A stretch of DNA of 64,000 bases from a virus: positions 51,615-115,614 of the IMG/VR virus record IMGVR_UViG_3300027963_000048. One strand, 5' to 3'. Positions 21,333 to 61,298 of the stretch are shown piece after piece. Made by a program: the position numbers and the translations under genes. The notes under the pieces were generated by a model. The model saw nothing but the letters and a program-made list of their open reading frames with translations. It ran no database searches and was not told where the DNA came from. Positions within the stretch are counted from its first letter, which is position 1. Every line of letters starts with the position of its first letter.

Positions 21333-21432
21333 AGCTAAAGAACCAAACGTATCAGGAGGATACAATGGTATTTTGGACAGTGCTAGCAATCTGCATCTTA
21401 CAAGACATACTTACTAACAAGGACGTTACACA

Positions 21433-21780
21433 ATGAAAGAGACAATATTCATAGCTAGAGCAGTCACCTGCGCTACAATCATCACGGTAAACTACATAGA
21501 CCACATCGATAAAACGATGAGCACCTACCTAGCCATCCAAGAACTAAACGCAGCCTGGATGGCAATGGAATGGCTACAAGCAACACTCAAAAGCGGCCAA
21601 AAAGACGTAGTTAGCGACACCATAATCCCCGGTATCGCAACGCTACTTACCTTTGTAAAAAACACAAGTATCCTACTCATCCTCCTCACCACAGGATGCA
21701 TAAAAACCCTTGAAATCCAAGGAAACGGCACCCCAACCCACATTAACGCTAACGCAAGCATTACCGCCCTCACATGGTAA
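21433..21780 (+). CDS. Hypothetical protein
   Basis: ORF with RBS, strongly A/C-biased codons. Confidence 0.45.
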   Translation: MKETIFIARAVTCATIITVNYIDHIDKTMSTYLAIQELNAAWMAMEWLQATLKSGQKDVVSDTIIPGIATLLTFVKNTSILLILLTTGCIKTLEIQGNGTPTHINANASITALTW

Positions 21781-21798
21781 TAAACAAAGGAGCACAAC

Positions 21799-23004
21799 AT
21801 GCAAGCACACGAAAAATTGATGAACGCCCGATGCCGCCTCATCACCAGAGAACCCTTCTACGGCTCATTCGCCATGGGACTCACATACCAACCATACGAC
21901 TTCCCCAACATGCAAGAGGAAGCTAAAACCATAGCAGTACGCATGATGTCCACCGGCAACATCGACATCGTATACTATCCCAATTTCATAGACAACCTAA
22001 CCATAGAAGAATGCTACGGAGTCATAATGCACGAAATCGAACACGTCATACGACTCCACTGCCTCAGAGGATCCACCCTACATCAAATGCAATACAATAT
22101 CGCCGCCGACATGACAGTAAACGGCGTAAAAAGAAACCCACGAGTCGGCTACCCAACAACCAGCCTAGGATCAGGAGAATATGGCGGACGAACCCTCCCA
22201 CACGAAGACAAACTCGTATGGATCCCCCTAGGATGGCCAGAAGACGCAAGCGCAGAAGAATACTACAAACGACTCACCAACCAAGCACAAGACTGCAAAA
22301 AACACGGCAAAAACAAAGACCAACACCCAAAATGCACATGCACCCAAGGCCAAACACTAGACAACCACGACATCTGGCAACAAAGCGACATAAGCGAAGA
22401 CGAAGCCAGACAAATAATCAAAGAAATGACAAACCAAGCTATCACCAGAAACCAAGGCAAATACCCAAGCCACCTCACAGAAGCAATAAAAGAACTATCC
22501 ACACCAAAAATACGATGGCGCGAACTCCTACGCCGCTACATAGGCCAACACCTAGGCAACAAACGATACACCCACAGCCGCCGCAACAGACGAACCGACC
22601 AATTCGGCATCAAAGGCACAAGCCACCACGCAGCCGCCACAGTCAACATCATCATCGACACAAGCGGAAGCATAAACCAAAAAGACCTAGCCACATTCTT
22701 CGCCGAAATCGACACAATATCAAGCAAAACCAAAACACACATCCTACAATGGGACATGCAATACCAGGGCTACACCCAATACCGAAGAGGAGACTGGAAA
22801 AAAATAAACATCAACGGCAGAGGAGGAACCGACATGGCAACACCATACGAATGGCTCGAAAACAACAACCTCATCGCAGACCTACAAATACTCCTAACAG
22901 ACGGACACACCAACTGGGCCCCACCCAAACCATACCCATCAATAGTCATCATCACCACAAACCAAAAAGGACCAACATGGGGACACAACATCCACATCAA
23001 CTAA
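21799..23004 (+). CDS. DUF2201-type metallopeptidase plus VWA-like domain protein
   Basis: HEIEH zinc motif, NIAAD..VN, W.ELL, IDTSGS MIDAS, GRGGTD, LTDG. Confidence 0.9.
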   Translation: MQAHEKLMNARCRLITREPFYGSFAMGLTYQPYDFPNMQEEAKTIAVRMMSTGNIDIVYYPNFIDNLTIEECYGVIMHEIEHVIRLHCLRGSTLHQMQYNIAADMTVNGVKRNPRVGYPTTSLGSGEYGGRTLPHEDKLVWIPLGWPEDASAEEYYKRLTNQAQDCKKHGKNKDQHPKCTCTQGQTLDNHDIWQQSDISEDEARQIIKEMTNQAITRNQGKYPSHLTEAIKELSTPKIRWRELLRRYIGQHLGNKRYTHSRRNRRTDQFGIKGTSHHAAATVNIIIDTSGSINQKDLATFFAEIDTISSKTKTHILQWDMQYQGYTQYRRGDWKKININGRGGTDMATPYEWLENNNLIADLQILLTDGHTNWAPPKPYPSIVIITTNQKGPTWGHNIHIN

Positions 23005-23006
23005 CA

Positions 23007-23243
23007 ATGCACACACCAACAATAAACTACATCACCCAAATCCTCCAACAATACAGAGGAACCAAACCATACGTCTACTACTTCACACAACACACCACAA
23101 AATCCCACTTCACCCTAACCATTAAAACACCAACCCACACACAAAAGATCAACGGCAACCAACTGCCAATAGAAAACCACCAACAAACAGAACAAATGAT
23201 ACAACAACTCATAGACCACCCGATAAATAACCACACAACCTAG
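23007..23243 (+). CDS. Small hypothetical protein
   Basis: ATG 3 nt after the VWA stop. True start lies inside the long shadow ORF 22011..23243. Confidence 0.45.
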   Translation: MHTPTINYITQILQQYRGTKPYVYYFTQHTTKSHFTLTIKTPTHTQKINGNQLPIENHQQTEQMIQQLIDHPINNHTT

Positions 23244-23476
23244 GAGCATAAGAATGACTAAACCCAATAGTGATGAAATCGCTAAAATTCTGATTTCAAT
23301 GACCATTACAGCACCGATTGCATTGATTATAATCATCAATCTCTGGAAACTGGCATATCTTAGCCTTATGTGGTAAGCAGATGACTGAGATTAAGCTAGA
23401 CAAACACGAATGGTGGCTATGATATGCTGCAAAAAATGCGGAATGATCAAAGGTACCATGCAAAGGCAATGTTAAA

Positions 23477-23824
23477 ATGACCACTAAAGAGATATACGAT
23501 ACCTATCTAGCACCAATACTACACGAAATCCTACATCCAGAATATACCCATGAATATCACATCGATGATTTAGATCAATTCGAATATGTATCACTAACGC
23601 TTAAATCCAATTCAAACATCCCCATAGGCTTCATAGAACTATCAAAAATAGACATCACGACAGATCACACGGTTTTACCCAGTCTAATTAAAAATCTAGC
23701 TATCTTCAACCATCGGCCTGCTGTTTTCAGCTCAATCGACATCAGAACAGCACTCACCCACAAATTCCACACTTATCAACGAAGCTCATACCTGTCACAA
23801 CAAAAACACAAAGGTACCAAATAA
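23477..23824 (+). CDS. Hypothetical protein
   Basis: 115-aa ORF with protein-like composition. Confidence 0.5.
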   Translation: MTTKEIYDTYLAPILHEILHPEYTHEYHIDDLDQFEYVSLTLKSNSNIPIGFIELSKIDITTDHTVLPSLIKNLAIFNHRPAVFSSIDIRTALTHKFHTYQRSSYLSQQKHKGTK

Positions 23825-24221
23825 CAAAAAAATGGACAAAACCAACCACCACAAAGGATCCCCAACAATCAACGGAAAGAACGACCACAACCAACCAGAT
23901 ACAATAAACAAAAGGAAAACCAAATAAACACAATAAAAACATAGCACTACCAACTCACCTCATCATAAATAATCAAACAACTAACCCACCCGACCACCAA
24001 AAAGGAAGACATATGACCACAACAAAGAAAAAAACAGACTGCGCAGAATACCAAATCAAACAAGGCATAAGCTGCAAAAACTGCCCCACATGCCACCAAG
24101 AAGCATACCAACTTATAGAAAAGCTACAAGCAACGACACAATAACAGACCACGAAAAAGAAATCGAAAGACTACAATACGACCTCTAATACAATAAGCTA
24201 AACTAAGCAAAGGAACTAAAA

Positions 24222-24500
24222 ATGAACATAAAAAACCAAGACACCAAAAAAGACCAAAAAACCCCAATCATAAAAACATACTACCTAGACAACCGGCAAG
24301 ACATACTCGAAATCGCATTTGACGAAAAAACCGTAGCAATCGCAAATCCCGAAGGAATATGGGTAACAGATTCAGCCCAAAACATCAGAAAAATCTCAGC
24401 ACTCCTCACCAAATACGCAGATATGATAGAAACAAAACCCAAAGACCCGGAAGCCAACATACTACCACCAAGAGACTGCACCAGCTACATAGGATGGTAA
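24222..24500 (+). CDS. Hypothetical protein, probable paralog of 27098..27337
   Basis: AAGGA RBS. SAQ..RKI...L...A..IE shared with 27098..27337. Confidence 0.6.
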   Translation: MNIKNQDTKKDQKTPIIKTYYLDNRQDILEIAFDEKTVAIANPEGIWVTDSAQNIRKISALLTKYADMIETKPKDPEANILPPRDCTSYIGW

Positions 24501-24778
24501 TGCGAGAAAAAAAGGAAAAATTAAAAAAGTTAGCGGGAACGGGAGAAGGAACTCAGTGGCCATCTCATCGCCTCGGTGAAATCAGAAGAAAATGAAGTGA
24601 GGAAAAAGAATAACACAAAAATGTTCGTTTATAGCCCGTTAATTCTCAGAACATTCGACTCTTATAAGTGCAGCCCGATAATATTCTATAAACCCCGTCG
24701 TATAGAATAATAATCCATCCCTTTGGAGGCTGCGAAAATACATGACAGGTATCTTATTTTTAATCGTCGATAGTTCCG

Positions 24779-25099
24779 ATGAGTAGTTTAATTTTCGTCG
24801 GGGAGTACCTCAGGTCACTCCTGGAGAGTCGGGTGGCTCATCTTACTTTTCACATCCATGGCGTCTATAGCCCCCTACCTAGGATGGTATGTGTCTCTTT
24901 AATTGATCCGCTGTGTCGGGTCGATTATTCAGATGATGCGTCACATGTGTTGATTGTTTTGTTTTTTGATTGGGTGAAGTTCCATTCGAGTTCAATTTCG
25001 TGTGCGCTATGTGAGATTGATTTTTCTAGTGATGACAGTGTGGTTGATTCTGTTTTACGTTTTGGTGTGTTTCATTCGGTGCCGAGGGGAGTAGGCTAA
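24779..25099 (+). CDS. Hypothetical protein
   Basis: 106-aa ORF with G/T-biased codons. Confidence 0.45.
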   Translation: MSSLIFVGEYLRSLLESRVAHLTFHIHGVYSPLPRMVCVSLIDPLCRVDYSDDASHVLIVLFFDWVKFHSSSISCALCEIDFSSDDSVVDSVLRFGVFHSVPRGVG

Positions 25100-25232
25100 T
25101 CTGGGGGCGGTGTCGGTAGATGTATCTATTGCCTATTTGGTCGCGGGTCCAGTCGCCGTTTGGGTCTTCTATCCAGAAGGGGCTGTTGATGTCGGTGTTT
25201 GGGTTGATTGTATATCGCATTTTATTGGGCCA

Positions 25233-25272
25233 CTGGGGAACTTCTGCTTGACACCATTCGCCTTCGGCAGTT
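25233..25272. repeat. 40-bp direct repeat, copy 1 (copy 2 at 27625..27664)
   Basis: CTGGGGAACTTCTGCTTGACACCATTCGCCTTCGGCAGTT occurs identically twice. Confidence 0.9.
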
Positions 25273-25360
25273 GTTTATGGGATGACAGGAAATGGTGAAA
25301 ACATCCCTCCCTACCCCAGTGGTTATTTTATTTATGTGGTTATGCGGGGCCGGGTTTGCC

Positions 25361-25687
25361 GTGGTGTTTTTCCAGCCAGCATTTGGTTTGCTCTTGTCTC
25401 TGTGTTTCCTTTGTGGAACGGAGGTCGTAACTGATGTGAAGTTGGTTTGGTTTGGTTTGGTTTGGTTTGGTTTGGTTTGGTTTGGTTAGGTTGGATGGTA
25501 TATTTACCGATTGCGGATTTATGCTGTGGTGTTTTTCCAGCCAGCATTTGGTTTGCTCTTGTCTCTGTGTTTCCTTTGTGGAACGGAGGTCGTAACTGAT
25601 GTGAAGTTGGTTTGGTTTGGTTTGGTTTGGTTTGGTTTGGTTTGGTTAGGTTGGATGGTATATTTACCGATTGCGGATTTATGCTGT
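25361..25687. repeat. Tandem duplication (165/160-bp units) containing a (TTTGG)8/7 microsatellite
   Basis: Direct comparison of 25361..25525 with 25526..25687. Confidence 0.92.
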
Positions 25688-26052
25688 CACATAGTAAAGT
25701 TACTGCTTAATTTTTAAGGAGTTTGGTTATGGCAGTTGATCCTAGATATATCGCAAAGTTGATTAGTGAAGATCCGAATGGTCCTTCTGATTTGGCTGAG
25801 ATGAGAGTGCTGGCGAGTGGTACATGTGTTAGTATAAGTGATTTTAATTAATTTGTTTGGTCAAATCTATCATTCTATAATAGATTTGACTGGAATAGTG
25901 TTCTATTTATCTATGGCTTGTCGGGTTGTTTGTTCTGTGGATATGTCGATTTTGATCAGTTCGTGGGTGATTGGGTTGGTGTCGAACGGTTCAGGGTCTG
26001 CTTGTGGACTTTATACACTTCAGCTAAATCTTCAATTGCATTTACCATGTCC

Positions 26053-26678
26053 TCATGTACTGAAAATTATATAGATCATCTCCTTAACGAATTTTTTATG
26101 TTTGGCAATGGCTTCTTCCAATTGCTTTATTCGTAGCCTAGATGCCTTTAATTCGATTTCGTCTTTTGGCACATTACACCACTGACATATTTTGTGCGCA
26201 TTAAACAAATGCTTATGAGCACGTATGCATGGAACAATATTAAGATCCATTTTTTTACTCATGCTCATTCCTTTTCCTCCACATAGATTTTACCACCAGC
26301 ACTACGGATCAACCTCTTGAATTCCGTGATGGTTACACCAGCGTGAATGACTACTTTGGGATCACTAGAATACTTTGCCGTTGCCAACCATGGTACATAC
26401 TTAGCGTTGATATCTTCAACACAGTATGATGAATTACCGTAATGATATTCCTCTGGGGTTACCAAGTCAGTTTTAAATATGACTTGACTTATCTCCCATT
26501 TAGGTGTTCCATCTTCATTCCAATCTTCCGGAATAGAACGAAAAGGGCTGTAGGGTCTCCCAGCATTATGCTCATACGGAGCATCATTCCAGTCGTCACC
26601 TGTCTGCTTACTCAATTCTTGCGTAGTAAAATACGCTGTGTTGTCTTTAATAAAACACAATACTGGTTCATTCATCAT
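26053..26678 (-). CDS. Two hypothetical phage proteins (26053..26268, 26265..26678)
   Basis: Overlapping stop/start. 26265..26678 carries GDDWNDAPYEHNAG, a motif I recall from other phage proteins. Confidence 0.7.
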
Positions 26679-26950
26679 TCACCTCGTATTTCCGGCTTTA
26701 GCGTATATGAGTATTGCTTCGTCGTGCTTTGCGGACCGCCAGTTTCAATGACCAATCCAGCGGCCACCATCTCGTCGCAGGCATCGGCGACGTCTTGTGA
26801 ATACGGTCCGAAGCGATGGAGCATGTAGTGGCACCCTAAATCACAACCTGCTTGCTGAAGGAAGAAAACGACTTTTTGCAGGCGCTTGCGCCCAGAAAAT
26901 CCTTGTTCCCCGGTCCAAGAAAGTAGTGTGGCCAATTGGTGTCTGTTCAT
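26675..26950 (-). CDS. YwgA/SocA(Panacea)-like winged-helix protein, short
   Basis: GRKRLQKVVFFLQ...Y.LHRFGPYS.DV motif. Confidence 0.7.
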   Translation of the reverse strand: MNRHQLATLLSWTGEQGFSGRKRLQKVVFFLQQAGCDLGCHYMLHRFGPYSQDVADACDEMVAAGLVIETGGPQSTTKQYSYTLKPEIRGE

Positions 26951-27097
26951 GCCATCACCCCAGTTCTGATGAGGGCTATGAGTATTGCGCTGTAGCAGAA
27001 GATGAGCATTGTTGGGGTCCTTTCAGTTTTGGTCGTCGTTCTTCTAGTTCGTCCATGGTTTGGTAAGTGTTTCCTAGGTGGAACGCAGGGTTATTGC

Positions 27098-27601
27098 TTA
27101 CGGGGTTTGGGGGTACGCTGCTGGCGGTAAAACCTTAAAGGAAGACTCGCCGCAATCCATTGGAGGCTCAATCTCATTCGCTAACTCGACCAATGCTCTA
27201 CCAATCTTCCTAGCTTCTTGTGCAGAAAAATACATGGTAAATCGGCGTTCACAGGGTTCGATTATGATGATTTCGGCATATGCTTCAACACGATCTGTGC
27301 AGAGTGTAGTATCCCATTTATCCTTGAAAGTCTGCATTTCTTTGGACTCCAGTCTAGTTTCCCTGTTTGGCTATTATCTCGAAGTTGTTCTGGTCCATGT
27401 GGGTCGTTTCATGTTGTATAAGGGTGATCCTTTTACGAATCTTCGGTGCCATTCTAGGCTGTTTTCTATGGCTTCTTTGATTTTTAGGATGGTTTTTGGG
27501 TTTGTTGGTAGGGTGTTGTTGGTTTCATAAGTGTCCTTTAGGATATCTAGGAGTTGTGTGGTTTGGGTTTCGTTTAGTTTGATGGTGATTTTGTTGGCCA
27601 T
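27098..27601 (-). CDS. Two small hypothetical proteins (27098..27337, 27374..27601)
   Basis: Co-oriented ORFs downstream of the ligase-like gene. Confidence 0.5.
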
Positions 27602-27624
27602 TGTGGTTCTTTTAGTATCGGTGT

Positions 27625-27664
27625 CTGGGGAACTTCTGCTTGACACCATTCGCCTTCGGCAGTT
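27625..27664. repeat. 40-bp direct repeat, copy 2
   Basis: Identical to 25233..25272. Confidence 0.9.
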
Positions 27665-27675
27665 AAGTTTGATTT

Positions 27676-28413
27676 TCAATATCGATGCCTGCCGGTTTGC
27701 ACTCGGGTTTTGGCCATCCAGGTGGTGTTGTTGTTAACTTGGTGGCCGTAGGTGAGTTTGCCTTGCATTTGTTTAAATACTAGACCTTCTATGAGTGGTT
27801 GTTGATATGGTTTGTTTAGGGTGAGGATTTGATCCCAGGTTTGTTGCCATTTTTTTGGTGGGATGAGATCTGGTATGATGATGTTGTCTGTAGCTTTGGT
27901 GCCTAGGTTGAACACGCCAGCGGAGTTTTTGAATTCGTATGTTTCCTCTGTGGAACATGTGTTGCGTAGGAGGTCGTATCTTTCTTGATATGTGGTGTCT
28001 ATGAGGTGGTTTCCATTTAACACTAGGATATCCCAGATGGCGAAGTGATCTTTGATAGCTTTGTGTTTGCAATCTATGACACCTCCGTCAATTAGCGTCC
28101 ATGAGTCGGGATCTATAGCTAGGCGTTCGCGAAGTTCGTGAAATTGTGGCTCTAGCCATTCTGGTAGGTTGTAGTCTTTTAGACGTTCGCCATGTCTGCT
28201 CCAAAGTTGCAGTTGGTTATTTGGTAGTAGTTTGTATAGGGTTCTGGTGTCGTTGTATTTTAATTGAGCCTGATAACCTAGAGTGGCATATAGGTTCATA
28301 TCTTCTGGTGGGATGGCTTCCTTAGCGCGTGGCGGGAAGATGTATTTGCTCTGTTGTGCGATCATAGGTCGCCCTCCCTTTTTAATATATTCCAATTGAG
28401 TATTCATTGCCAT
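27676..28413 (-). CDS. ATP-dependent ligase-like nucleotidyltransferase (adenylation domain only)
   Basis: QLKYND (motif I), WSRHG, IDGG (III), IWDIL (IIIa), EGLVFK (IV), W.AK.R (V). No OB domain. Confidence 0.75.
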   Translation of the reverse strand: MAMNTQLEYIKKGGRPMIAQQSKYIFPPRAKEAIPPEDMNLYATLGYQAQLKYNDTRTLYKLLPNNQLQLWSRHGERLKDYNLPEWLEPQFHELRERLAIDPDSWTLIDGGVIDCKHKAIKDHFAIWDILVLNGNHLIDTTYQERYDLLRNTCSTEETYEFKNSAGVFNLGTKATDNIIIPDLIPPKKWQQTWDQILTLNKPYQQPLIEGLVFKQMQGKLTYGHQVNNNTTWMAKTRVQTGRHRY

Positions 28414-28456
28414 GGATTCTCCTTCAAATGATAAAATATACGATGGGGAAGTGATC

Positions 28457-28950
28457 ATGTCACCCTTGAATACTATTGTCAGTTATAATCCTAGAATAAC
28501 ATGTGGCAAATACCTGGTTGAGGGAGAATTGGATGACTGGTACAGTGATGATGAGATAGCTGGTCAATTGGCTGGCAACCTGTGTGTTGGTGATGTGGTG
28601 AATGTTCAAGGTGGAGCTGTTAAAATTATTCAAATTATTGACCATAAGAGTGGTGTCCGTCGACAATTTATCGAATGATGTATTAAATTAAGAACAAAAT
28701 TATCTGACGGTTCATGGAGGGATCTATGAGGAAGAATCGCGCTTCTGTCGAATTCGCTTTGCACTATGCAATCTATCGTTTGAATTATCATCATGAATCC
28801 GGAATGGCAGAAAAGGTGGATAACTTGTTGCGTGAGCTGGCATCCATTGACGCTGATGAGGCCGGCGAGTTCGTGACACGTGATAGATTGGAAACTACAA
28901 GACAAACTGCTTTGACTATTGTAGAATATGCCAATGGATCGCTTGTGTAG
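28457..28950 (+). CDS. Two small hypothetical proteins (about 28457..28678 and 28714..28950)
   Basis: ORFs divergent from the ligase gene. Confidence 0.45.
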
Positions 28951-28988
28951 TTAATCTCGTATGTTTCCTCGGTGGAACCATGCGAGAT

Positions 28989-29829
28989 TTAGTCTAAGTT
29001 GTCAAACCAGGACATATCTGGCTCTTCGGATTCTAAATTAAAGTCTGTACCTATAGCTTTTTTCAATGCCATGAGGTCATCTGTGGCTATTTTCTCGTGA
29101 TGATCAACGATAGCTTTCACCTTGCCTTTGCGGTTTAATTCTCTTAGACTGTAAGCATTGATTACAGCATCAAGGGTGTGCGGTGGTGGTGAGTTGTCGC
29201 CATGTAGGATGGTGTAGACTCCGTCAGCTGTAAGGCCTACGCGGCCTCGCGGTAGAGCGGTATGTGACATTCCTAGATTTCGTAAGTTGGTTTTTGGTAT
29301 TTTCAAATTATATGCTAGGGTTTCTAGTGCTTCAGGCCATATACTGAGGTGCGTAATGTCATCATTGCTATCTTTCTCAAACCATGGGTAAATGTCCCAA
29401 TCTATTTGGATACCGTTTTTGGTTTTTTTAACCTCTTTAGGTATCCAATAATATGGTCCTTGTTTTGGTGCGCGACTTTCTTCGATAGCCTTTTTTTGGG
29501 CTAGTAATGAACTTTTAAGCATGTCATCAATTTTCATTGTTATCTCCTTTACATGTATTTTCGATGGTAAATGATCGCTAGTCGATGATTGTAAGTTCCT
29601 CTGGTTTGTAGCCGATTATGAGTACTTCTCCGCATCTGCCTTTCCAGGATATGATAGCGTAGCCGTCTTTTAGCGCGGTGATTGCGTCTGTTACTGTTTC
29701 GGTGACGTCGTCTCCGTTGTATTTTGGTTTTCCATTGGTTTGTCCTACGATTAATGGGCGTATGTCGAACTTGATGAGTGGTTCATCGTTTAAGGTTTTC
29801 CATAATGCTTTTTTGGTGATCTGGGTCAT
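28989..29829 (-). CDS. Two hypothetical proteins (28989..29537, 29578..29829)
   Basis: ORFs with AAGGAG/GGAG RBS. Confidence 0.6.
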
Positions 29830-29981
29830 TGTGATGCTCCGTTTGTGATGTTGTGACTGGCTAATTGTAGCAGGTTTGATATTGTTTAATAATTATGTGT
29901 GTTGTATTGGAGGGTTATTTTTCCTATGTTCGTGGTCTGTCACATCATGCCGGGAAATTCACCAGTACTTGGAGTGATGAA

Positions 29982-31130: not shown

Positions 31131-31207
31131 GTATTATCCTATAATATCTTTTGTGTTTCGATATTGTCATATAGTATTGTGGTTTTGGTGATTTTTAACA
31201 AGAGGAG

Positions 31208-32338: not shown

Positions 32339-32428
32339 TATTTATTGGTTTAGGTGCGAGGGGGATTGCCCTCTCGCACTTTCTTTGTCACATGTGGTCG
32401 GTGGTTCACGTGTTAGGAGGGGTGTGTT

Positions 32429-52392: not shown

Positions 52393-53607
52393 ATGCCAGT
52401 ATTTATAAACCACAATGCGTACAACGTTATTTTACATGGTCCGCAAGGCCAGCCCACTTTATTATCTAGTAAGCAGATAATAGAGTTACCAGATTTTTAT
52501 TTACGGTACGTTAAAAGGGGTTATGTCAGACAGCTTGCCGCACATAAAGCTTCGCCTAATCAAATTCTTAATTCGATGCCAAAAAGGCCGCAGCCTAACC
52601 CGATAAGGCCTGCAATATCTACCACTTTAGCTCCAGCTACCACTTTAGCTCCAGCTACCACTTTAGCTCCAGCTACCACTTTAGCTCCAGCTACCACTAC
52701 AAGTCGGCCTTTTGTTGCTACTGGTAAACCAGTCACTGCAGCTCCTACAGCGCCGGAGTTTCAAAGTGGTAAGATACTGCATTACAATGATTTTAGGGCT
52801 CCTGACTATTTGAATGATATGATTTTCCATGGTGGTAAGTCGTTATTTGGCGCTAACTATATTGACTTCTGTGACGCTAGCTACATGTACGACGACTACG
52901 TTGGCTTAAGTAAGTTGTATGGTCGCGGGTTTACGGTTTATGGTAAGTTGCGCAGGCATAGGCACGTCGAAACTGACATTGACGAGAAAATAAAGTCTAG
53001 ATACTATGATTATATTATCATAGGGTCAGTGTTTCGGTATCGGCACAAGTTAGACTTTATTAGAAGCATATATCCTAAGAATAGAATCATAGTGATAGAT
53101 GGCGAGGATGAAACCCATTATTATCCGGAGTACACGTCAGACACTTTGTATTTCAAACGTGAACTGCAGCCGGGGATAAAAGACGTTTTGCCCATTTCAT
53201 TTAGTGTTCCTAAAGAATTGTTCGTTAATTTCATTCCTGATAAAGATCAAATGATCTCAGATACGCAACCAGCTGGCCCTAGTTCGTATATATATGACGA
53301 CGAGAAATTGTATTATAGCAATTATCAGAGGTCATATCATGGTCTTACAAGGAAAAAGGCTGGCTGGGATTGCTGTCGCCATTATGAGATCATTATGAAT
53401 TACTGTATGCCACAGTTTTATGATTTGGAATCATGTCCACCTACCACTATGGTGCATTTTCCTAAGCGACAGATATTGGAGTACGCTCAATATGCAGATT
53501 TCGAAAAAAATCGATATTTTGATACTATGTCTGATATTTTTGAATACAGTAAGAAGCATCTTACGACAGAAGCTATGATGAAGTATGTTTTAAGCTTCAC
53601 TGCTTAG
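52393..53607 (+). CDS. Glycosyltransferase-related protein with Pro/Thr linker
   Basis: DYLND..FHG, IDGED, YFKRE, KKAGWDC.RHYEI motifs. Internal (TTLAPA)4 repeat. Confidence 0.6.
   Translation: MPVFINHNAYNVILHGPQGQPTLLSSKQIIELPDFYLRYVKRGYVRQLAAHKASPNQILNSMPKRPQPNPIRPAISTTLAPATTLAPATTLAPATTLAPATTTSRPFVATGKPVTAAPTAPEFQSGKILHYNDFRAPDYLNDMIFHGGKSLFGANYIDFCDASYMYDDYVGLSKLYGRGFTVYGKLRRHRHVETDIDEKIKSRYYDYIIIGSVFRYRHKLDFIRSIYPKNRIIVIDGEDETHYYPEYTSDTLYFKRELQPGIKDVLPISFSVPKELFVNFIPDKDQMISDTQPAGPSSYIYDDEKLYYSNYQRSYHGLTRKKAGWDCCRHYEIIMNYCMPQFYDLESCPPTTMVHFPKRQILEYAQYADFEKNRYFDTMSDIFEYSKKHLTTEAMMKYVLSFTA
52621..52698 (+). repeat. 18-bp tandem repeat x4
   Basis: ACCACTTTAGCTCCAGCT repeated in frame. Confidence 0.9.
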
Positions 53608-55306
53608 AATTGGAGCTAATTTTGGGAGCCTTGTGCAGTCTGAAATTATTCACCTTTACGGAAGTGCTATTTATAGATCCTTCGCCTTCTACAAAGTCAT
53701 ATGACGAATAGTGAACGTACCCATTTAGTACTAATTCTAGATATTTGCCAGTGTCATAGCCGACAGTCATAAATGTTATTTTCCTCTTATCGACACCATG
53801 GTGTCTGCCGGTGGCTATTAAACCTCTGAATTTTACTTGGTTGCCATTGCGTTCACAAAAGCACCCGGGCATGAATTTCTCACTAATCCAGTAGCCACGT
53901 CTGTTATATTGCCATAATCCTTTGCCTCGTTCCTCTACGATAGACGGGGTTAAAACATTGCCGTCTAGTTTCCAAGGGCCTTTACCAAAGGCTCCAAAGA
54001 CCAGTCCAGCTGCTTTAGCTTCCTGCACATGAACCCATGGCCTGTACATGCTCTCAGCGTGATTGAGGACACTACACCAAAATTTAAATGGCTGATGTGC
54101 CTTTTCGTAGGCTAAAGCCCAAACTAGTTGGCCGTAATTTACTGCGTGGGCACGGCAGAAACTATACAAGCTAAAACGATTTAGATCGTTGACAATTTGT
54201 GCTTGATTTGGATGGTATTTGGTCTTCTCGATGAATTCTGCGATTTTGTCATATTTCTTCTTACTGAACGCATTCCTGTAAAGTTCCGCTTCAGATTCAG
54301 AACAATTTAACAGATCTCGAATGTAAAATATCCCGTCATCGTCGTAGACCATTTGGCCCAAGTAATTGCCATGTTGCCTCAACTGCCGCAAAATCTGCAT
54401 TCTTTTACCGTCAGCTGATGGTAAAGGTCTGATTAGAGCCAAAGAGAAAATGATATCATCACGGCATTTCGGCTGTAATTCAACATGCAGCTTCCTCTGA
54501 GCTGGACTCTCGCCGAAATTAACACCCCAAGCGCAACCATCCGAAAAGATTCTAGCTGTAGCTTCGTCATCGGCAGGATAGTTTTCCAGTGGCCTATTTG
54601 ACAACTCATTGAGCTGTGCCAAGCCACGATTACACAAGATGTCGATTTTAAATAATTTATGATCTTCTACTTCATCTTTATTCAATTTGATTTGAAAGTC
54701 ATTGAGTTTCAATTCTTCAGGTACTGAATCTGGGAAAATCACTATTCCACCGCAGTGTAGACTATAATTCTTGAAATCGCCAACTATCTCAGCTGCCCTG
54801 TTTAACACTTCATCGGATCTGTCACCGACTACATCTTTGAGATTAAATCCTTTTGGTAGGAATCTATGTAAGCCTATTTCACGTAAAGCTTGTCTGATAG
54901 CTGACGTAGATTTATAGGTGACATGGTTAGAGATTCTAGCGACACGCCCGGGATATTTTAGCATCACGCGTCTAATCACTTCATCTCTCTGATTGTAAGC
55001 GAAATCTAAATCTACGTCTGGGAGATCTAATCTTCCTTCGTGCATAAAACGGCTCAGGGCGAAGCCATGCTCGACCGGATCCATATTGTGGATACCTAGC
55101 AAATATCCTATCAAACTGCAGCCAGCAGACCCACGAGTGACATATCTGAATTCGGGTACAAGATCTAAAATAGATCGCACTTGCAAAAACACATCTTTAA
55201 AGTTATTTTGTTCGACAAGACGCATTTCTCTTGCAAAGCGATCAGCGTATGAACGCCCAGTGGGCAAAGGCCTACGAAATGCGGAGGTCAATTCCATATA
55301 TGTCAC
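53597..55306 (-). CDS. dnaE: Minimal family-C DNA polymerase (DnaE-like, no PHP domain)
   Basis: RGSAGCSLIGYLLGI, SRFM...LPDVDLDF, SLHCGGIVI, KIDIL, ALIRP, YSFCRAHA..Y. Confidence 0.88.
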   Translation of the reverse strand: MTYMELTSAFRRPLPTGRSYADRFAREMRLVEQNNFKDVFLQVRSILDLVPEFRYVTRGSAGCSLIGYLLGIHNMDPVEHGFALSRFMHEGRLDLPDVDLDFAYNQRDEVIRRVMLKYPGRVARISNHVTYKSTSAIRQALREIGLHRFLPKGFNLKDVVGDRSDEVLNRAAEIVGDFKNYSLHCGGIVIFPDSVPEELKLNDFQIKLNKDEVEDHKLFKIDILCNRGLAQLNELSNRPLENYPADDEATARIFSDGCAWGVNFGESPAQRKLHVELQPKCRDDIIFSLALIRPLPSADGKRMQILRQLRQHGNYLGQMVYDDDGIFYIRDLLNCSESEAELYRNAFSKKKYDKIAEFIEKTKYHPNQAQIVNDLNRFSLYSFCRAHAVNYGQLVWALAYEKAHQPFKFWCSVLNHAESMYRPWVHVQEAKAAGLVFGAFGKGPWKLDGNVLTPSIVEERGKGLWQYNRRGYWISEKFMPGCFCERNGNQVKFRGLIATGRHHGVDKRKITFMTVGYDTGKYLELVLNGYVHYSSYDFVEGEGSINSTSVKVNNFRLHKAPKISSNSKQ

Positions 55307-55324: not shown

Positions 55325-55397
55325 TGGGCCCTCCGGGATTCGAACCCGGAACCAAGGGATTATGAGTCCCCTGCTCTGACCGTTGAGCTAAAGGCCC
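55325..55397 (-). tRNA. tRNA-Ile2(CAT) (lysidine-type; Met not excluded)
   Basis: GGGCCTTTAGCTCAACGGTCAGAGCAGGGGACTCATAATCCCTTGGTTCCGGGTTCGAATCCCGGAGGGCCCA, resembling bacterial ileX. Confidence 0.88.
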
Positions 55398-55474: not shown

Positions 55475-57502
55475 TTAGAGGCCGTATCTGGTGCTGTATG
55501 CGTTGTAGTTTTGGGTTATTTCGGTTGCGGTGAGTTGGCGGTTGTAGATTTGGGCTAGGGCGATTCGTCCTGAGAATACGCCATCTGTGTTACCGTTGAC
55601 GTTACCGATTAGGAATTTTGTCCATGCGTAGGTGGCGGTGGTTGATCCTGTTGCGGTTGTGATTAGGTTGCCGTTGATGTATAGTGTGATGGTGCGGTTG
55701 GTGCTGTAGTTGTATATTATTGTTAGGTTGTACCAGTTGTTTGCTGTTAGTTGGGTAAGTAGGCTGATTGTTGGGCTGGCGTTCCACCATTCTATGAGGC
55801 CGTTGTAGATTCTTAGGACGTTTGAGCTGTTGGGGGCGGTGTCGTATAGGTTGAGTTTGGTGGCGGTGACGTTGGTTGGGTATATCCAGAAGTTTATGGT
55901 GATTGGTAGGGTTGGGGTTGGGACTGCGGTGTCGATATATTGGTTGATGGTTGCGCCGCTGTTGATTGTGAAGTAGCTGGCTGTTCCGCTGGATGTGTAT
56001 GTGGGGGTGCCGCTGATGGTGCCGTTGTTTCCGTTTCCTGAGAGGTCGGTCCAGGTGGTTCCGGTTCCGGGGTAGCTTGCTGCGTTGCCTGCGTCGAGGT
56101 TTAGGATGAGGCCTGCGGTGATTGGTGGTTGGGTTTGTGGTTTGCTGTAGGTGGGGGCTTGGGTGTTGTAGTTTTGGGTGACTTCTGCTTGGGTTAGTGC
56201 GCGGTTGTAGATTTGGGCTGCGGATATTTTGCAGGCGTTGTATTCGCTGCCGTAGCCGTTGTGGATGTTTAGGATTTGGGCTGTGAAGTTGTTGGTGAAT
56301 GCGGTTTTGGTGGTTTTGAGTAGGCCGTCGAGGTAGGCGTATCCTATGGATGATTGGCGTACGAATACTACGTGGTGCCATGTGTTGACTGATAGTTTCC
56401 ATGTGGATGCGGCGGCGTAGTTGTCCCATGTTGGGGTGTAGAGGTAGAGTATGCCGTCACTGTTGTTGGCTTTTAGGGCGAGGGTGCTTTGGCTTGGTAG
56501 GGCTATGAGGTGTGTGTATTGGCCGTAGGCTGTTATGTTTATCCAGCAGCAGAAGGTGAAGTCGCCGGTTCCGAATGCGTAGCTGGCGTTTGATGGGCTG
56601 GTGGCGTAGTTGCTTGCGAAGGAGATGCTGCCGTTGTTGGATGAGTTGTAGGTTGGGCTGCTGGTGAGTGTTGCGTGGTTGGCTGTGGTGGATAGGTCGG
56701 TCCAGGTGGTTCCGGTTCCGGGGTAGCTGGCTGTGTTGGTGGCGTCGAGGTTTAGGATGAGGCCGGTTGTGGCGATTTGGGTGGCATTGTATCGGTCTTT
56801 GGTTGCGTTGTAGTTTTGGAGGATTTCGGTGGCGGTGAGTGCTCGGTTGTATACTTGGGTGGCGGCTATGTTGCCTGGGAAGACGGCTCCGTTGCCTCTT
56901 GCTGCTATGTTGAAGTTGCAGCTGGTGTAGTCGATTGATGTTGGGCTGGCGTTGCCTCTTACGGTGGTGGATGCTAGTGTGCCGTTGATGTAGACGGCTA
57001 GTCCTGCTGCGGTGTTGGCGCCGCTGTTGGTTCCGACGATGTTGACCCATTGGTTTGTTGGGAGGGTGTTGGCGTTGCCTTGTATTCCTATGAAGTTGGT
57101 GCCGTCGAAGTAGTCGAAGAAGAATGATTTGGCGCGGATTGATCCGTTGTCTGCTTGGAGGTAGTAGCCTTTGCCTCCTGCTACGCCGTATGAGGCTATT
57201 GTTGTGATGGCTGCGGCTGTTGGTCTCCAGTAGATCCAGGCTGAGATGGTGTATGCTTGGGTGTTGGTGAATTGCAGTCTGGTTTGCGTGCCGAATTGGA
57301 TGTAGTCGTCTGTGCCGTCGAATGTGATGCTTCCACCGTTTGCGCTTGTGTAGGTTGGGCCGAGGGTTAGGATTCCGTTTATTGCGTTTCCTGAGAGGTC
57401 GGTCCAGGTGGTTCCGGTTCCGGGGTAGCTTCTTGTGTTTGCTGCGTCTACGGCGAGTATTAGTCCGGATTCGTTTATTTCGGGGCCGCTATATGATGCC
57501 AT
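55475..57502 (-). CDS. Protein with three LamG/concanavalin-A-like domains (virion decoration or tail)
   Basis: Three GLIL.LDA.N..SYPGTGTTWTDLS ... YNRALT..EI.QNYN units. Confidence 0.9.
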   Translation of the reverse strand: MASYSGPEINESGLILAVDAANTRSYPGTGTTWTDLSGNAINGILTLGPTYTSANGGSITFDGTDDYIQFGTQTRLQFTNTQAYTISAWIYWRPTAAAITTIASYGVAGGKGYYLQADNGSIRAKSFFFDYFDGTNFIGIQGNANTLPTNQWVNIVGTNSGANTAAGLAVYINGTLASTTVRGNASPTSIDYTSCNFNIAARGNGAVFPGNIAATQVYNRALTATEILQNYNATKDRYNATQIATTGLILNLDATNTASYPGTGTTWTDLSTTANHATLTSSPTYNSSNNGSISFASNYATSPSNASYAFGTGDFTFCCWINITAYGQYTHLIALPSQSTLALKANNSDGILYLYTPTWDNYAAASTWKLSVNTWHHVVFVRQSSIGYAYLDGLLKTTKTAFTNNFTAQILNIHNGYGSEYNACKISAAQIYNRALTQAEVTQNYNTQAPTYSKPQTQPPITAGLILNLDAGNAASYPGTGTTWTDLSGNGNNGTISGTPTYTSSGTASYFTINSGATINQYIDTAVPTPTLPITINFWIYPTNVTATKLNLYDTAPNSSNVLRIYNGLIEWWNASPTISLLTQLTANNWYNLTIIYNYSTNRTITLYINGNLITTATGSTTATYAWTKFLIGNVNGNTDGVFSGRIALAQIYNRQLTATEITQNYNAYSTRYGL

Positions 57503-57598
57503 TTTGTGGTCCTGTGTTTATTTGATTTTTGTTAGGGTCGTGTTGGGTCGATTCTTTGGTGTGATGCATGGTGTATTTATTTTGGTAGGTGGGGGTGT

Positions 57599-58097
57599 AT
57601 GGTGGTTGATAATGAGTTGGTCATGGATTATTTGGTGCCTTTGTTGGAGCGGGTGTTGCCGTCTGGTTGGTCTTTTGATAGGACGGTTGCTGATTCGTGT
57701 GGTTTGCATTTTCGGGTGTATGATCAGTTGGGTGGTGAGTGGTTGGTGTTTTTTGATGATTTGGGGTGGGACTGCGAGTCGGCCACTGTTGATTCGTTGG
57801 CGTTTGTGGTTGGTCGTATTAGGGATTTTTCTGATGTGTCGAAGTTTTTAAGGTCTTTGGAGGAGGTTGATGTGTCGAAGTGTTTAAATGCTCCGGAGGA
57901 GGTGGGGGATGTCTGAGATAGAGCGGCGGGTTTTGGTTGGTGATGTGTCGAGGTTGGCTAAGGTTTTTGCTGTTTGGCAGAGGGTGTGTAGGTGTCGTCC
58001 TGTGGTGGATAAGCGTAGGGTTGAATTACGTTTGAGTCAGGTTAGTAGGGCGTTAGAACAGGTTGAATCTGCTACGTGTGGCGGTGATGCTCATTAG
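57599..58097 (+). CDS. Two small hypothetical proteins (57599..57916, about 57909..58097)
   Basis: RBS-like GGGG/GGAGG, G/T-biased codons. Confidence 0.5.
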
Positions 58098-58748
58098 TTA
58101 TAGGCCATATCTACTACGGCTTGCGGTGTAATACGTGATGATTTCTGATGCTGTTAATACTCTGTTGTATAGTGAGACTGACGCTATGTTGCCGTTAAAT
58201 GGATAGTTATATGCCGCGCTACCTTCTGCGCCTATTCCGAATGCGGCTATTGGATTTGTGAGAGTTCCACTATTCAAATTGGTAGAGCTGAGCAGATACC
58301 AGTTACCTACTGTTAGAACTAACGTATTGTTGGGTGTCGCCTGATAATCATTATAGTATAGTGTAGAACCGTCCTCTTGGTAGTAATTCGTAGTGCCAGT
58401 TCTTAGATACAGATCAATATAGTTATCAGTATCGCCATTGCCGATTATTTTTTGCCACCCTGCTGTACCATTCGCTTTACACCACACCAACGTGGTGTAG
58501 CCATTTCCTCCCTGCGATGTTTTTAAACTCGTCGGGAATCCAGTGCGGTAGAATCTGTTGGTTTGAGTGAAGCCACTGAATCCGTTTGTTTGTGAATATG
58601 TGAGAGTGCCATTTAGGGTAAAATGGTTATTATTGCCACTCAGATCATACCATATCGCTCCGCTGCCTGGATAACTTTTGATGTTACCGGCATCTAGCTG
58701 TAATAGTAGCCCTGTGGTAGGTACGTTTGGCCCATCGAAACAACTCAT
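58098..58748 (-). CDS. Single LamG-like domain protein
   Basis: GLLLQLDAGNIKSYPGSG..WYDLSGN ... YNRVLTASEI. Confidence 0.88.
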   Translation of the reverse strand: MSCFDGPNVPTTGLLLQLDAGNIKSYPGSGAIWYDLSGNNNHFTLNGTLTYSQTNGFSGFTQTNRFYRTGFPTSLKTSQGGNGYTTLVWCKANGTAGWQKIIGNGDTDNYIDLYLRTGTTNYYQEDGSTLYYNDYQATPNNTLVLTVGNWYLLSSTNLNSGTLTNPIAAFGIGAEGSAAYNYPFNGNIASVSLYNRVLTASEIITYYTASRSRYGL

Positions 58749-58861
58749 TTTATGATCTCTGGATAGATAACACGATAAATTTGCAAAAGGCTTACCATGG
58801 ACCTTACAGCGATAGATTTCATTGCTCCACCATTAAGGCATTCATTCTCTAGTGCGACTGA

Positions 58862-58993
58862 CTATTGCCGCTGACCCAAGTTATGATTCACCAATGCCAT
58901 GTCTGACCATGTGGTTCCAATTCCTGAATAGCTTTTTGTGTTCCCAGCATTTAATCTGGAAGCGGCGCTATTTGGTCCTTCGAACACGCTCAT
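58862..58993 (-). pseudogene. Truncated LamG-gene remnant
   Basis: MSVFEGPN...LNAGNTKSYSGIGTTWSD followed by an early stop. Confidence 0.65.
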
Positions 58994-59017
58994 TGTACAT
59001 AGATTTGTAATAGCGTT

Positions 59018-60603
59018 ATGGTGAATGATATGTTTACTGCAAGTATCAATGGCGTACCTGGTTCTTTGATGTCGCTTCCATCTTACACGTGTAGCGACCA
59101 TTTTACTATTTCGTGCAGCGATGTGGCTCCTCCGGAGCGTAAGAAATTGCAGCGAGCGTTTTTGGAGCTTTTGGATGATGCAGAATTCAGGGCGGAGGTG
59201 CTGGGTAAGTTGTTGCAGGATGCTGCTGATCCTTCTTATCCTAAGGTTTAATCTTTGTGTAACCAGTGTTGATTGTAGATCTGTGGGGTTTGCATTTGTG
59301 TGAGATATTGTCGTAGGTCGTTTGGGATGGCTTCGTTAATTTGAGATCTGTGTTGTCCTGGGATGTATGTTTCTTTTAAGTAGTCATAGGTGGTGTAGCC
59401 GTAGTATTCGCTGTCATCGATAGATAAAATGGCGTGATGTTGGCCTTGACGCCATTCTAGGATTACTTCTGTTTGGTCGTCTGTAATACTTACTGTTGGT
59501 TTCGGTAGGGTTGTTTCGTAGTGCTGGGTGAATACCATTGCGTTTTTGATGACTTGCGGTAGGTATAATATTTGAGCCATTGTGGTGTCCTGTATTTGGT
59601 TATTCAAATTTTATGTGAGGGCATTATGCAAACTGTTGAAATGGTGTTGTCTTGGCGTGATGCTTCTGCGGCAATCAATACTTATGTGGACGGTGGGTTT
59701 GTTTTGGTTATGATAGAGCCGGTGTGTCAGTGGCGTGGCTGGTGGTGGACTTATTTGTGTCATTTGCGGTTCGTTCGTCACGAGGCGATTTGATGGATGT
59801 GACACAGGTTGCTATCTGTGTACTATCTGCTTTGGTTATCGTAATTATAGTATGGTTAGATCGTCATCCTTCTAATGATTAGGTGTGTATATGTCGAATA
59901 TTGAAGCTTCAGATGCGACAGTTATTCCGCCAACAGCTCCTCCTGTTTTAAATATGTGGTTCTTAGAGAATTTCACGATTCGTGGTAATCCTGATCGTAC
60001 TCAGCCGATTATGCTATCTGCTATGTTTGTGAAGGGTGCAGAGTTAAAGGATGAAAGTGGTAATCTGACTGGTTACTTTACTGATCCTAATTTTCGTACT
60101 CATTATGAGGTGCGTGATGTTTTTAATCCAGCTACTTTGGAGAGGCATCCCGAGATAGCTGCTTTAATGCCGCAGTTTTTGACTGCTCTTGATGCGGTTG
60201 GTAAGCGTTTGGGGGTTCTATGATTTTTCCGTGCGATGGGCGTGTGGTGGATCGTGATGATGGCTGCTGGTACGCTGTTTTTTACAACGATGGCTCTTTA
60301 AATGCCAATGATATCGTGAATGAGTTTATCCCATCACATGAAGTGCCAGTGGTGGTGTGGCGGCGGGGTGATGTGGTTTATATGCCAGTGTTCAGGTCTG
60401 GTAAAGAGGTGGTGAAGTTCGCTAGGCGTAATATTATTAGTCCTTCCCGCGAGTTTGCCTATATCACGGTTGCTAGTCTTAGCATTAAAAGCTTAGACGA
60501 TGTTGAGCCTATTTGCTTGCTTTTATCTTACCCAGGTAAAGTGGATAATTTATCTAGTGAGATTTTTTCTCTAGATGCTGACACTGAATTGGTGGCTTTA
60601 TGA
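59018..60603. CDS. Hypothetical proteins 59018..59251(+), 59248..59580(-), 59626..59793(+), 59885..60223(+), 60220..60603(+)
   Basis: Protein-like ORFs from the track, with starts adjusted. Confidence 0.5.
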
Positions 60604-60691
60604 TACTTTTTGAAATCATGTTAGATTTGCCACTGTATTTGTGTTTCATTGTGTGTGTGGCCAATAATCTTATTTTAGCGTGGAATTTACT

Positions 60692-61279
60692 ATGTCTCAA
60701 GCTAAGGATTACACTTATTTGATCGGCACTAAGGTTAATAAGTGGTCTGTTATTAGCATTCATAAGCGTTTTATCGGTGATAGGAAGAGAGTGCTGGCTA
60801 GGGCTACCTGTGAATGTGGTAAGATTAAATCGGTGTTGGTTGAGAACATTATAAGTGGTCATAGTAAGAGTTGCGGTTGTAGGGTTTTCCCTTATCAGCG
60901 TAAAAACTGCGTGGTGGTGGCGTATTACAATGGCAAGTTTGATGGCTTTTGTACTTGTGGGCTACCTTTCAAGGCTAAGTCTCGTGCACAGGTCAATAAG
61001 GGCTTCTGCTGTCATGCGCCGGTGAACAAAGGTGTGAAAGGCAAGTATGATTGCTTGAATTTATCTAAAGTCACTTTAAGGTCTCTTCACGATCGTTGGC
61101 GTGCTATGAGACAGCGGTGTCGGCAGGATGGCGTTGAATTGGAGCCATCGTGGTGTGATTTTAAGGAATGGGTGGCGGATGTTGGGGTGCCTGACTCATT
61201 GAGTTATTGGTTTATGAGGCTAGATCCCAATCGTGGATGGGTGAACGGCAATTGCGGTTGGTTTAAGGGGCAAAATTAA
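60692..61279 (+). CDS. HNH/AP2-associated homing-endonuclease-like protein
   Basis: G.K.NKW.VI...CECG......G.SKSCGC N-terminus, W..M.QRC, W..F..W..DVG, R.DPN.G...GNC.W. Confidence 0.7.
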   Translation: MSQAKDYTYLIGTKVNKWSVISIHKRFIGDRKRVLARATCECGKIKSVLVENIISGHSKSCGCRVFPYQRKNCVVVAYYNGKFDGFCTCGLPFKAKSRAQVNKGFCCHAPVNKGVKGKYDCLNLSKVTLRSLHDRWRAMRQRCRQDGVELEPSWCDFKEWVADVGVPDSLSYWFMRLDPNRGWVNGNCGWFKGQN

Positions 61280-61298
61280 ATTTTATACGATCGGGTAT

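Follow-up and report, generated by a model that had tools for sequence, protein, structure and literature searches.

Extreme keto/amino strand asymmetry around an origin-like switch in a freshwater jumbo phage and its relatives

What can drive one strand of a phage genome towards just two of the four bases over kilobases and still leave the encoded proteins intact? The question is raised by IMG/VR virus record IMGVR_UViG_3300027963_000048, of which we analyzed the right-hand 64 kb (positions 51,615 to 115,614, that is, 64,000 nucleotides; hereafter the window, to which coordinates refer unless a genome position is given). An earlier note, made from the letters alone, had described between 21.4 and 61.3 kb a patchy + strand excess of either A+C or G+T, and had put forward local replication origins, persistent R-loops or a strand-specific mutator as possible causes. 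The record comprises 115,614 bases with a CheckV completeness of 32%, so it represents a fragment of a jumbo phage; near-identical DNA is present in freshwater and lake metagenomes from at least 10 studies. As detailed below, the skew changes sign at an origin-like point near 24.75 kb, and its composition, strand rule, polarity, decay, recurrence in relatives and lineage specificity could all be established directly.

The background, computed in 500-base intervals over genome positions 1–68.5 kb, had a + strand G+T content of 0.496 ± 0.034. Within 21.4–61.3 kb the same quantity spanned 0.24–0.76 at a step of 250 bases and reached 0.78 at a step of 500, and 48% of the 500-base intervals lay beyond 3 standard deviations from the background. 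The hand counts of the earlier note were exact (G+T of 10/60 at 23101–23160, 13/60 at 22321–22380, 50/60 at 56101–56160 and 47/60 at 57661–57720), and every A/C-rich or G/T-rich tract that it had listed was recovered in the 500-base intervals. When 150-nt intervals were used, GC skew and TA skew were correlated within 21.4–61.3 kb (r = 0.67, or 0.667 to one more digit; r = −0.06 outside), their mean absolute values being 0.249 and 0.226, respectively.

The skew resided almost wholly at third codon positions, positions 1 and 2 being near normal, and in the strongest genes the third-position G+T content was either 0.04–0.08 or 0.92–0.94. In the gene for a protein with three Laminin_G_3 domains (LamGx3; 55475–57502, −), the fourfold-degenerate sites were A.44, C.55, G.01 and T.01 (n = 358). 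Of the 659 codons other than Trp, just 11 have G or T as their last base, and leucine is encoded only as CTN. The gene for a DUF2201 metallopeptidase/VWA protein (VWA; 21799–23004, +) gave A.53, C.46, G 0 and T.01, and the genes at 48190–48474 (−) and 50168–50491 (+) showed the opposite, with 94% G/T at third positions. Spacers within the tracts were skewed as well (G+T of 0.70 at 44005–44247; three others are given in Table 1), meaning that the force acts on the DNA and not on codon choice. Pfam supported the identity of both proteins, as well as that of an ATP-dependent ligase-like protein, a ResIII/DEAD helicase, a single-domain LamG paralogue of LamGx3, a 569-aa DnaE-like polymerase and a RuBisCO-large-like protein; the genes that the earlier note had named (DUF2201/VWA, ligase-like, ResIII helicase and triple Laminin_G_3) are hence real.

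Could the skew be an assembly, consensus or chemical-conversion artefact, as the earlier note had cautioned? Two JGI contigs from other samples (L083 and L084) have the same skew across the shared aligned blocks, in which they are 93–99% identical, and in Logan contigs from four runs, belonging to four studies, the same sequence recurs with few differences; the skewed sequence is thus carried by independent assemblies from other samples and studies. Furthermore, the skew spares codon positions 1 and 2 and the encoded products still match Pfam families, an outcome that conversion of the reads could not yield. We consider the chance of an artefact to be negligible.

The independence from coding strand was borne out by gene counts by orientation and by third-position values. 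Right of 24.75 kb, the plus genes were G/T-rich on the + strand in 19 cases and A/C-rich in none, and the minus genes were G/T-rich on that same strand in 10 cases and A/C-rich in 2. In at least 12 well-supported genes the coding (non-template) strand was low in G/T, with third-position values of 0.04–0.39 (among them LamGx3, 0.04; VWA, 0.08; the genes at 29578, 27374, 44248 and 59248, 0.14, 0.18, 0.19 and 0.22, respectively; ligase, 0.28). Because the strand counts embrace both gene directions, codon usage of the coding strand and ordinary transcription-coupled asymmetry can be excluded as the general cause; the former, which the earlier note had named as an alternative, is also ruled out by the skewed spacers.

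The detrended cumulative keto skew of the contig has its minimum at genome position 76,361, corresponding to 24,747 of the window. To the left of this main switch the + strand is A/C-rich for ~7 kb, most strongly beside the switch, and to the right it is G/T-rich for ~16 kb. This polarity is that of a bidirectional replication origin with a G/T-rich leading strand, and the amplitude of the skew is far beyond that known from any cellular chromosome. Scanning the switch region for promoters and terminators returned no more sites than were found in shuffled sequences. On its right, the main switch is adjoined by a 165-bp direct repeat (25357–25687; two copies, 96% identical, with ~10 tandem TTGGT units each), of which strain L084 has one copy only.

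When IMG/VR was scanned with a helicase alignment, we obtained five related jumbo-phage records (G001–G005; 228, 147, 356, 354 and 408 kb), with identities of 43–49% for the helicase and 38–47% for the ligase; G001–G004 were examined whole, and G005 over the first 400 of its 408 kb. IMG/VR scans with the single VWA, helicase and DUF932-like proteins found no relatives, and a megablast of 21.4–33.4 kb gave no match among GenBank phages. One strong A/C-to-G/T switch of the same polarity was present in each of the five records, and it coincided with the minimum of the detrended cumulative skew in four of them, as in the present contig. At 24.75 kb and at the five counterparts, GC and TA skew change sign jointly, and the strand that leaves the point 5′ to 3′ is G/T-rich. 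The skew decays over ~2–20 kb and is graded on both sides of the switches. In G003, a complete genome, the third-position G+T content goes from 0.98 beside the switch to ~0.75 at 10 kb and 0.5 at 11–13 kb; the decay holds over genes of both directions, and a mirror pattern extends for ~20 kb on the other side. Across the six records, sharp switches with an amplitude of at least 0.4 ran from A/C to G/T in 8 cases and the opposite way in 0, and secondary patches no farther than 50 kb from a switch had the sign of their own arm in 19 of 22 cases (our own tally). G004 also shows a broad G/T excess over most of its genome, in genes of both directions. Of the strand-displacement replication from local origins conjectured in the earlier note, it is the local origins that receive substantial support, from the origin polarity of the sharp sign changes, their occurrence once per genome in the five relatives, the cumulative-skew minimum in four of them and the decay.

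Two candidate origin motifs had to be discarded. A 26-nt element common to G001, G002 and G005 has further copies away from the switches in these three genomes and, as it contains a Shine-Dalgarno-like AAGGAG, can be read as a putative ribosome-binding leader; ATTTCC-N4-6-GGAAA hairpins also form arrays elsewhere and are absent from the present phage.

Transcription could leave a strand-specific mark of its own, as in the persistent R-loops invoked by the earlier note, where the exposed non-template strand would gain G and T. The coding strand of the promoter-motif cassette arrays described below is in fact G/T-rich on average in either orientation, and both the second switch at 49.4 kb and that of G004 sit between divergent genes. 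This explanation is however at odds with the genes (at least 12, from LamGx3 to ligase) whose coding strand is depleted in G/T, and with the main switch here and the G002 switch, both located between convergent genes. Since the flanking genes can be either convergent or divergent, the polarity belongs to the DNA and not to transcription, and we regard transcription-associated asymmetry as very unlikely to be the cause.

The fourfold-degenerate sites also attested to the type of change involved. In moderately skewed genes, T/(T+C) went from ~0.6 to 0.82–0.87 and G/(G+A) from ~0.4 to 0.70–0.71, so that purines and pyrimidines shifted to a similar extent (~3–4.5-fold in odds), in keeping with the earlier note, which had recognized C>T and A>G as acting together on a single strand. 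In LamGx3 the purine/pyrimidine ratio at these sites (0.45/0.56) was that of unskewed genes, as predicted for a transition-only process. The fourfold G+T share was 0.73–0.86 in every 5′ and 3′ neighbour context, and this lack of dependence on neighbouring bases disfavours a sequence-specific (APOBEC-like) deaminase; no cytidine/dCMP deaminase domain (PF00383) was found in the contig, which is a fragment.

We lean slightly towards a strand-asymmetric transition pressure that spreads from an origin-like initiation site and is made patchy by the gain, loss and inversion of cassettes. Such a pressure, acting over a long time on the DNA itself, would turn C into T and A into G on one strand wherever the protein permits. 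It would radiate both ways from a fixed origin-like site at 24.5–24.9 kb, with a weaker second initiation site near 49.4 kb, and the strand running 5′ to 3′ outward would turn G/T-rich, the effect fading over ~2–20 kb. Purifying selection would hold the proteins, so that the bias would surface at third positions, in spacers and as a mild amino-acid drift. Patchiness would have two sources, namely cassettes that, if recently gained or exchanged, would still be unskewed and, if inverted or moved, would have the opposite sign, and local hot tracts, of which the repeat-built LamG gene would be one. The site itself may be a start of replication, or of recombination-dependent replication. As to the chemistry, one option would be deamination of a strand that stays single-stranded for long (in a D-loop, or owing to delayed lagging-strand synthesis), another G:T mispairing by a low-fidelity polymerase making the first kilobases of the leading strand.

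Several observations weigh against this reading. The switch is origin-like by its composition, and an origin-specific sequence motif common to all six switches was not found. The skew of the complete G003 genome is local and not replichore-wide, and patches far from its switch include several with the 'wrong' sign when the genome is read as linear. Amplitude does not vary smoothly with distance: the LamGx3 tract, 31–33 kb off the switch, is saturated and the neighbouring polymerase gene is unskewed. Differences between strains (513 variable places) are symmetric in total and unpolarised, so an ongoing bias is unsupported. Free sites are saturated to ~98%, more than is known from animal mitochondria, and a rate asymmetry of at least 50-fold would be needed to reach this level. 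Finally, C deaminates much faster than A, and A>G and C>T shifts of equal fold are not what simple spontaneous deamination predicts; they are expected from G:T mispairs arising mainly in the synthesis of one strand, or from a general conversion of amino to keto bases.

As for patchiness, some tract edges fall within genes, as at 58260 in the LamG paralogue and at ~43510 in the phosphoesterase gene, and a gradient runs across the ligase gene; other edges fall at gene ends. The earlier note had taken the LamG paralogue (58098–58748) to be unskewed, which is mostly correct, the exception being its last ~55 codons (58098–58260), which are G/T-rich on the + strand. Where unskewed islands interrupt the tracts, the DNA also varies between strains: at 23.24–23.47 kb, L083 and L084 have a longer, weakly skewed segment instead, and at 25.97–27.06 kb the gene content is different in L084. 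The reversed tract at 48–48.9 kb lies within a segment (47872–49011, two cassettes) that is missing in the strain of run X4. In that same run, 57536–57601 is swapped for 35 other letters, likewise G/T-rich, and several further structural joints between strains are found at 45–47.5 kb.

A bipartite promoter-like motif, GGGATTT-N17-TGYCAYA, occurs in ~25 copies at 33387–49290, about one per small gene, and nowhere else in the 115-kb contig. It is oriented + at 33.4–42.9 kb and − at 45.3–49.3 kb, with two additional − copies at 41.4–41.7 kb. The reversed or weak skew of the block at 44.7–49.3 kb, combined with the inverted orientation of the motif, fits an inversion. The + array and the inverted array are linked by inverted paralogous segments, 35771–35949/49033–49211 (92% identity) and 38365–38607/46335–46577 (74–76%). 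As a cause of the skew the motif was rejected, being limited to 33.4–49.3 kb and absent from the strongest tracts.

These borders and cassettes would also be compatible with mosaic import, in which skewed genes arrive from wholly skewed donor phages, the sign reflecting the orientation of insertion and the borders the recombination breakpoints. Many tract borders do sit at gene ends, cassettes have been gained, lost and inverted between strains, and the reversed 48–48.9 kb tract is an accessory block. However, the sign is not random (8 to 0 for the sharp strong switches, and near patches match the sign of their arm), graded edges occur within genes, and neither the homologous loci described in the next paragraph, among which no skewed donor was found, nor the amino-acid drift of VWA, limited to this lineage, are in line with such an origin. 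Mosaic import would moreover merely shift the question to the donor, and we find it quite unlikely. Part of the patchiness does come from mosaic gene content, the earlier note having considered horizontally acquired blocks as an alternative.

No skew was detected at a VWA locus with 56% amino-acid identity (L085), among 80 viral LamG loci or among 80 planctomycete helicase loci; with such homologues unskewed, the skew cannot be ascribed to the gene families themselves. The closest relatives, an 83.8-kb contig (with P0002/P0122) and a 242-kb contig (with P0123), are 70–76% identical and were compared as proteins only. Lineage-specific replacements in VWA were towards A/C codons in 30 cases (with V>I in 8, V>T in 3 and A>T in 3) and the reverse in 12, those in the helicase were towards G/T codons in 37 cases and the reverse in 21, and those in the other homologues were balanced. 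The helicase relatives at 75% identity share the amino-acid shift and the VWA relative at 70% does not, implying that the tracts differ in age. In a pair of small paralogues of L084, G>A changes outnumbered A>G by 11 to 0 from the less to the more skewed copy, and they were mostly non-synonymous. L083 and L084 are nearly identical in the shared blocks, and no polarisation of substitutions could be derived from them; likewise, the two paralogous segment pairs linking the motif arrays gave no direction of change.

A further possibility is selection for near two-letter strands, whereby a benefit of unfoldable single strands or RNA, or avoidance of restriction sites, would drive free sites to one class. 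It would account for a saturation beyond known mutational equilibria, and either sign would serve. Four tracts were tested for palindromic 4-mers, and in three of them the density indeed dropped from 66 to 37–47 per kb, the remaining one (49.6–50.5 kb) having 61 per kb. Against this, palindromes are not avoided in the unskewed bulk of the genome (observed/expected, 1.02–1.03), and those in the tracts are no rarer than in synonymous shuffles, one tract even having an excess. There being no avoidance beyond what composition predicts, palindrome or restriction avoidance was rejected as the cause. Sign coherence across genes of opposite direction and a fixed switch polarity are, in addition, not predicted by selection at the RNA level. 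Overall, we see little likelihood in a selective explanation of this kind.

The closest published parallel is represented by GRINS, bacterial genes with the same kind of composition, whose mechanism was left open (Nivina et al. 2021, PMC8256042). They are defined by mean absolute GC and TA skews >0.15 over >500 bp and by duplication of >500 bp at >80% identity within the same cluster, and the correlation between GC and TA skew is r = 0.70 inside vs 0.09 outside; the authors also point out that some skewed regions are single-copy and that overlaps with phage genes occur (PMC8256042). Later papers citing this work have added no mechanism, and full-text literature searches retrieved no account of tracts like these from phages. 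The present tracts share with GRINS the intense, positively correlated GC and TA skews (0.249 and 0.226 here vs the >0.15 threshold), the third-position peak, the abrupt changes, the location within functional genes and the shift in amino-acid usage (Gly/Val/Cys/Trp vs Pro/Thr/His/Gln). They differ in that the duplication typical of GRINS is lacking here. Furthermore, either sign can occur on one strand in GRINS and no polarity rule is given for them, whereas here, in six phage records, the sign follows the side of the origin-like point.

We accordingly weighed a GRINS-type process, in which recombination, gene conversion or biased repair would make or spread skew tracts and the polarity would mark where recombination intermediates start. 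The composition matches that of published GRINS (|GC| 0.25, |TA| 0.23, r = 0.67, third-position peak and amino-acid shift), the cassette region shows duplication and shuffling, and the strongest distal tracts lie on internally repeated genes. One of the latter is LamGx3; the other, comparable and likewise distal, is a gene of G004 for an 834-aa protein made of ~40 tandem 20-aa repeats (QQDNYQRI.NANR.TTDT...), with a third-position G+T of 0.97. This gene maps to 277247–279751 (L200:17247–19751, −), its coding strand being 97% A/C at third positions, and the repeat protein has no Pfam match. On the other hand, there is no duplicate >500 bp at >80% identity (the LamG repeats are 56–58% identical, and the only repeats above 80% measure 171 and 179 bp) and most tracts are single-copy. 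GRINS being without a known mechanism, the term is also more a label than an explanation, and such a process alone does not predict one switch per genome at fixed polarity. This alternative appears unlikely.

With the replication asymmetry of bacterial chromosomes, the phage skew shares the polarity of a G/T-rich leading strand, the cumulative-skew minimum and the independence from gene direction. The amplitude here is an order of magnitude higher, given third-position G+T contents of 0.96–0.98 and the figure of ~2.5% for typical bacterial GC skew in a passage of the SkewDB paper (PMC8941118). The phage pattern also differs in being local and patchy, with decay over kilobases, and not replichore-wide in G003.

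In animal mitochondrial DNA, one strand is biased towards C>T and A>G at fourfold sites, and the bias is graded by position from the origin. At the fourfold sites of the phage, T likewise outnumbers C and G outnumbers A on one strand, and the skew clearly declines close to the switches, but the gradient is interrupted by saturated tracts farther out and by unskewed genes next to them; the phage pattern is, besides, bidirectional and mirror-imaged about a point, and the phage has a double-stranded DNA genome of at least 115 kb. At the origin of plasmid ColE1, Pol I makes the first stretch of the leading strand and leaves a strand-specific mutation footprint that decays with distance, a fading which resembles the one seen here. 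The ColE1 footprint, which covers hundreds of bases, is known only from engineered error-prone Pol I, and no natural pattern of composition is known to correspond to it.

Table 1. Skewed and unskewed features of the window, and strong switches in the related jumbo-phage records. Values are third-position G+T unless otherwise indicated.
Feature	Position	Details
A/C-rich arm (+ strand)	17633–24500	~0.3–0.4 at 17.6–21.3 kb; 0.00–0.12 at 21799–23004; 0.11 at 24222–24500; spacer 23005–23240, G+T 0.18
Main mirror switch, A/C to G/T	24501–24880	~400-base spacer between convergent genes
G/T-rich arm (+ strand)	24881–41001	broken by unskewed island
G/T-rich arm, minus genes	27374–27679, 27676–28458 (ligase), 29578–29829	0.72–0.86
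G/T-rich arm, plus genes	29895–31130 (helicase), 31208–32338, others	0.73–0.82
G/T-rich arm, far end	36–41 kb	down to 0.57–0.74
Unskewed island in G/T-rich arm	25970–27373	four small minus genes, 0.42–0.57
G/T-rich patch	43510–44631	starts within phosphoesterase gene 43360–44004 (+), spans 44248–44631 (−); sharp end at ~44.65 kb, start of the cassette block with inverted motif
Reversed A/C-rich patch	47900–48926	two minus cassettes; + strand values 0.06 for 48190–48474 (−) and 0.21 for 48570–48926 (−)
Second, smaller A/C-to-G/T switch	49294–49770	spacer
G/T-rich patch after second switch	49771–50037 (+), 50168–50491 (+)	0.87, 0.94
Falling skew beyond second switch	50.6–53.6 kb	0.62–0.67
Unskewed mini DnaE-like gene	53597–55306 (−)	0.48 coding, 0.52 + strand; between skewed tracts
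Strongest G/T-rich patch	55475–58260	LamGx3 55475–57502 (−); spacer 57503–57598, G+T 0.84; gene 57599–57916 (+), 0.92; spacer 57917–58097, G+T 0.72; last ~55 codons of LamG paralogue
G/T-rich tract	59248–61279	one minus and three plus genes, + strand 0.70–0.82; fades past 61.3 kb
G001 strong switch	192.3 kb	detrended cumulative-skew minimum 192,065
G002 strong switch	144.1 kb	cumulative-skew minimum at another tract
G003 strong switch	~33 kb	detrended cumulative-skew minimum 32,556
G004 strong switch	240.55 kb	detrended cumulative-skew minimum 240,555
G005 strong switch	197.6 kb	detrended cumulative-skew minimum 197,578

Some features of the surrounding DNA are worth recording. The polymerase gene at 53597–55306 (−) encodes a miniature family-C (DnaE-like) enzyme of 569 aa, with the Pfam DNA_pol3_alpha core and finger domains and no Pfam match for a PHP domain. 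Two loci with a homologue (40–59% identity) are AT-rich and unskewed, and the five related jumbo phages gave weak matches only, in open frames of 472–544 aa. The 393-aa protein encoded at 50610–51791 (+) matches the RuBisCO large-chain catalytic domain (Pfam E = 3e-34). A tRNA-Met gene (55325–55397) marks the sharp left edge of the LamG tract; contigs from metagenomes are interrupted at this gene and the depth is ~10 times higher, indicating that the tRNA sequence is common to other genomes. A tRNA-Leu(TAA) is found at 40526–40608. Metagenome contigs also break at a perfect 18-bp tandem repeat (52619–52698; 4.4 copies) that encodes TLAPAT units within the gene at 52393–53607. The contig ends at 63334–64000 in a gene with 69-bp (23-aa) tandem repeats of leucine-rich type, which probably caused the assembly to stop at this point.

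Cellular homologues of the helicase (29895–31130 compared with loci L087–L166; 40–52% identity) belong nearly all to Planctomycetota (Gemmataceae, Pirellulaceae and Planctomycetaceae) which, together with the freshwater source, suggests that the host may be a planctomycete.

On the A/C-rich strands at 22011–23243 and 55602–57050, wrong-frame shadow open reading frames of up to 410 aa are found, because stop codons are scarce there. Automatic gene calls in skewed tracts are therefore unreliable, and besides misleading gene callers the skew distorts host prediction from codon usage and biases phylogenies built from the affected genes. Should the origin-anchored transition pressure hold, composition alone would pinpoint replication starts in uncultured jumbo phages, whose replication is largely unknown. 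A local mutation regime would then rewrite nearly all silent sites and bias the evolution of proteins in early and replication genes. More tentatively, and with doubt prevailing, jumbo phages of the present freshwater group may start synthesis at a fixed site such that, in each generation, kilobases of one strand stay exposed or are copied by a polymerase without proofreading. The result would be an origin-anchored hypermutation zone that recodes ~98% of the free sites, lets proteins drift and locates the origin to a precision of a few hundred bases, and the GRINS tracts of bacteria may have this same cause. If true, fixed polarity, distance decay and conservation across relatives would together provide a testable framework for GRINS.

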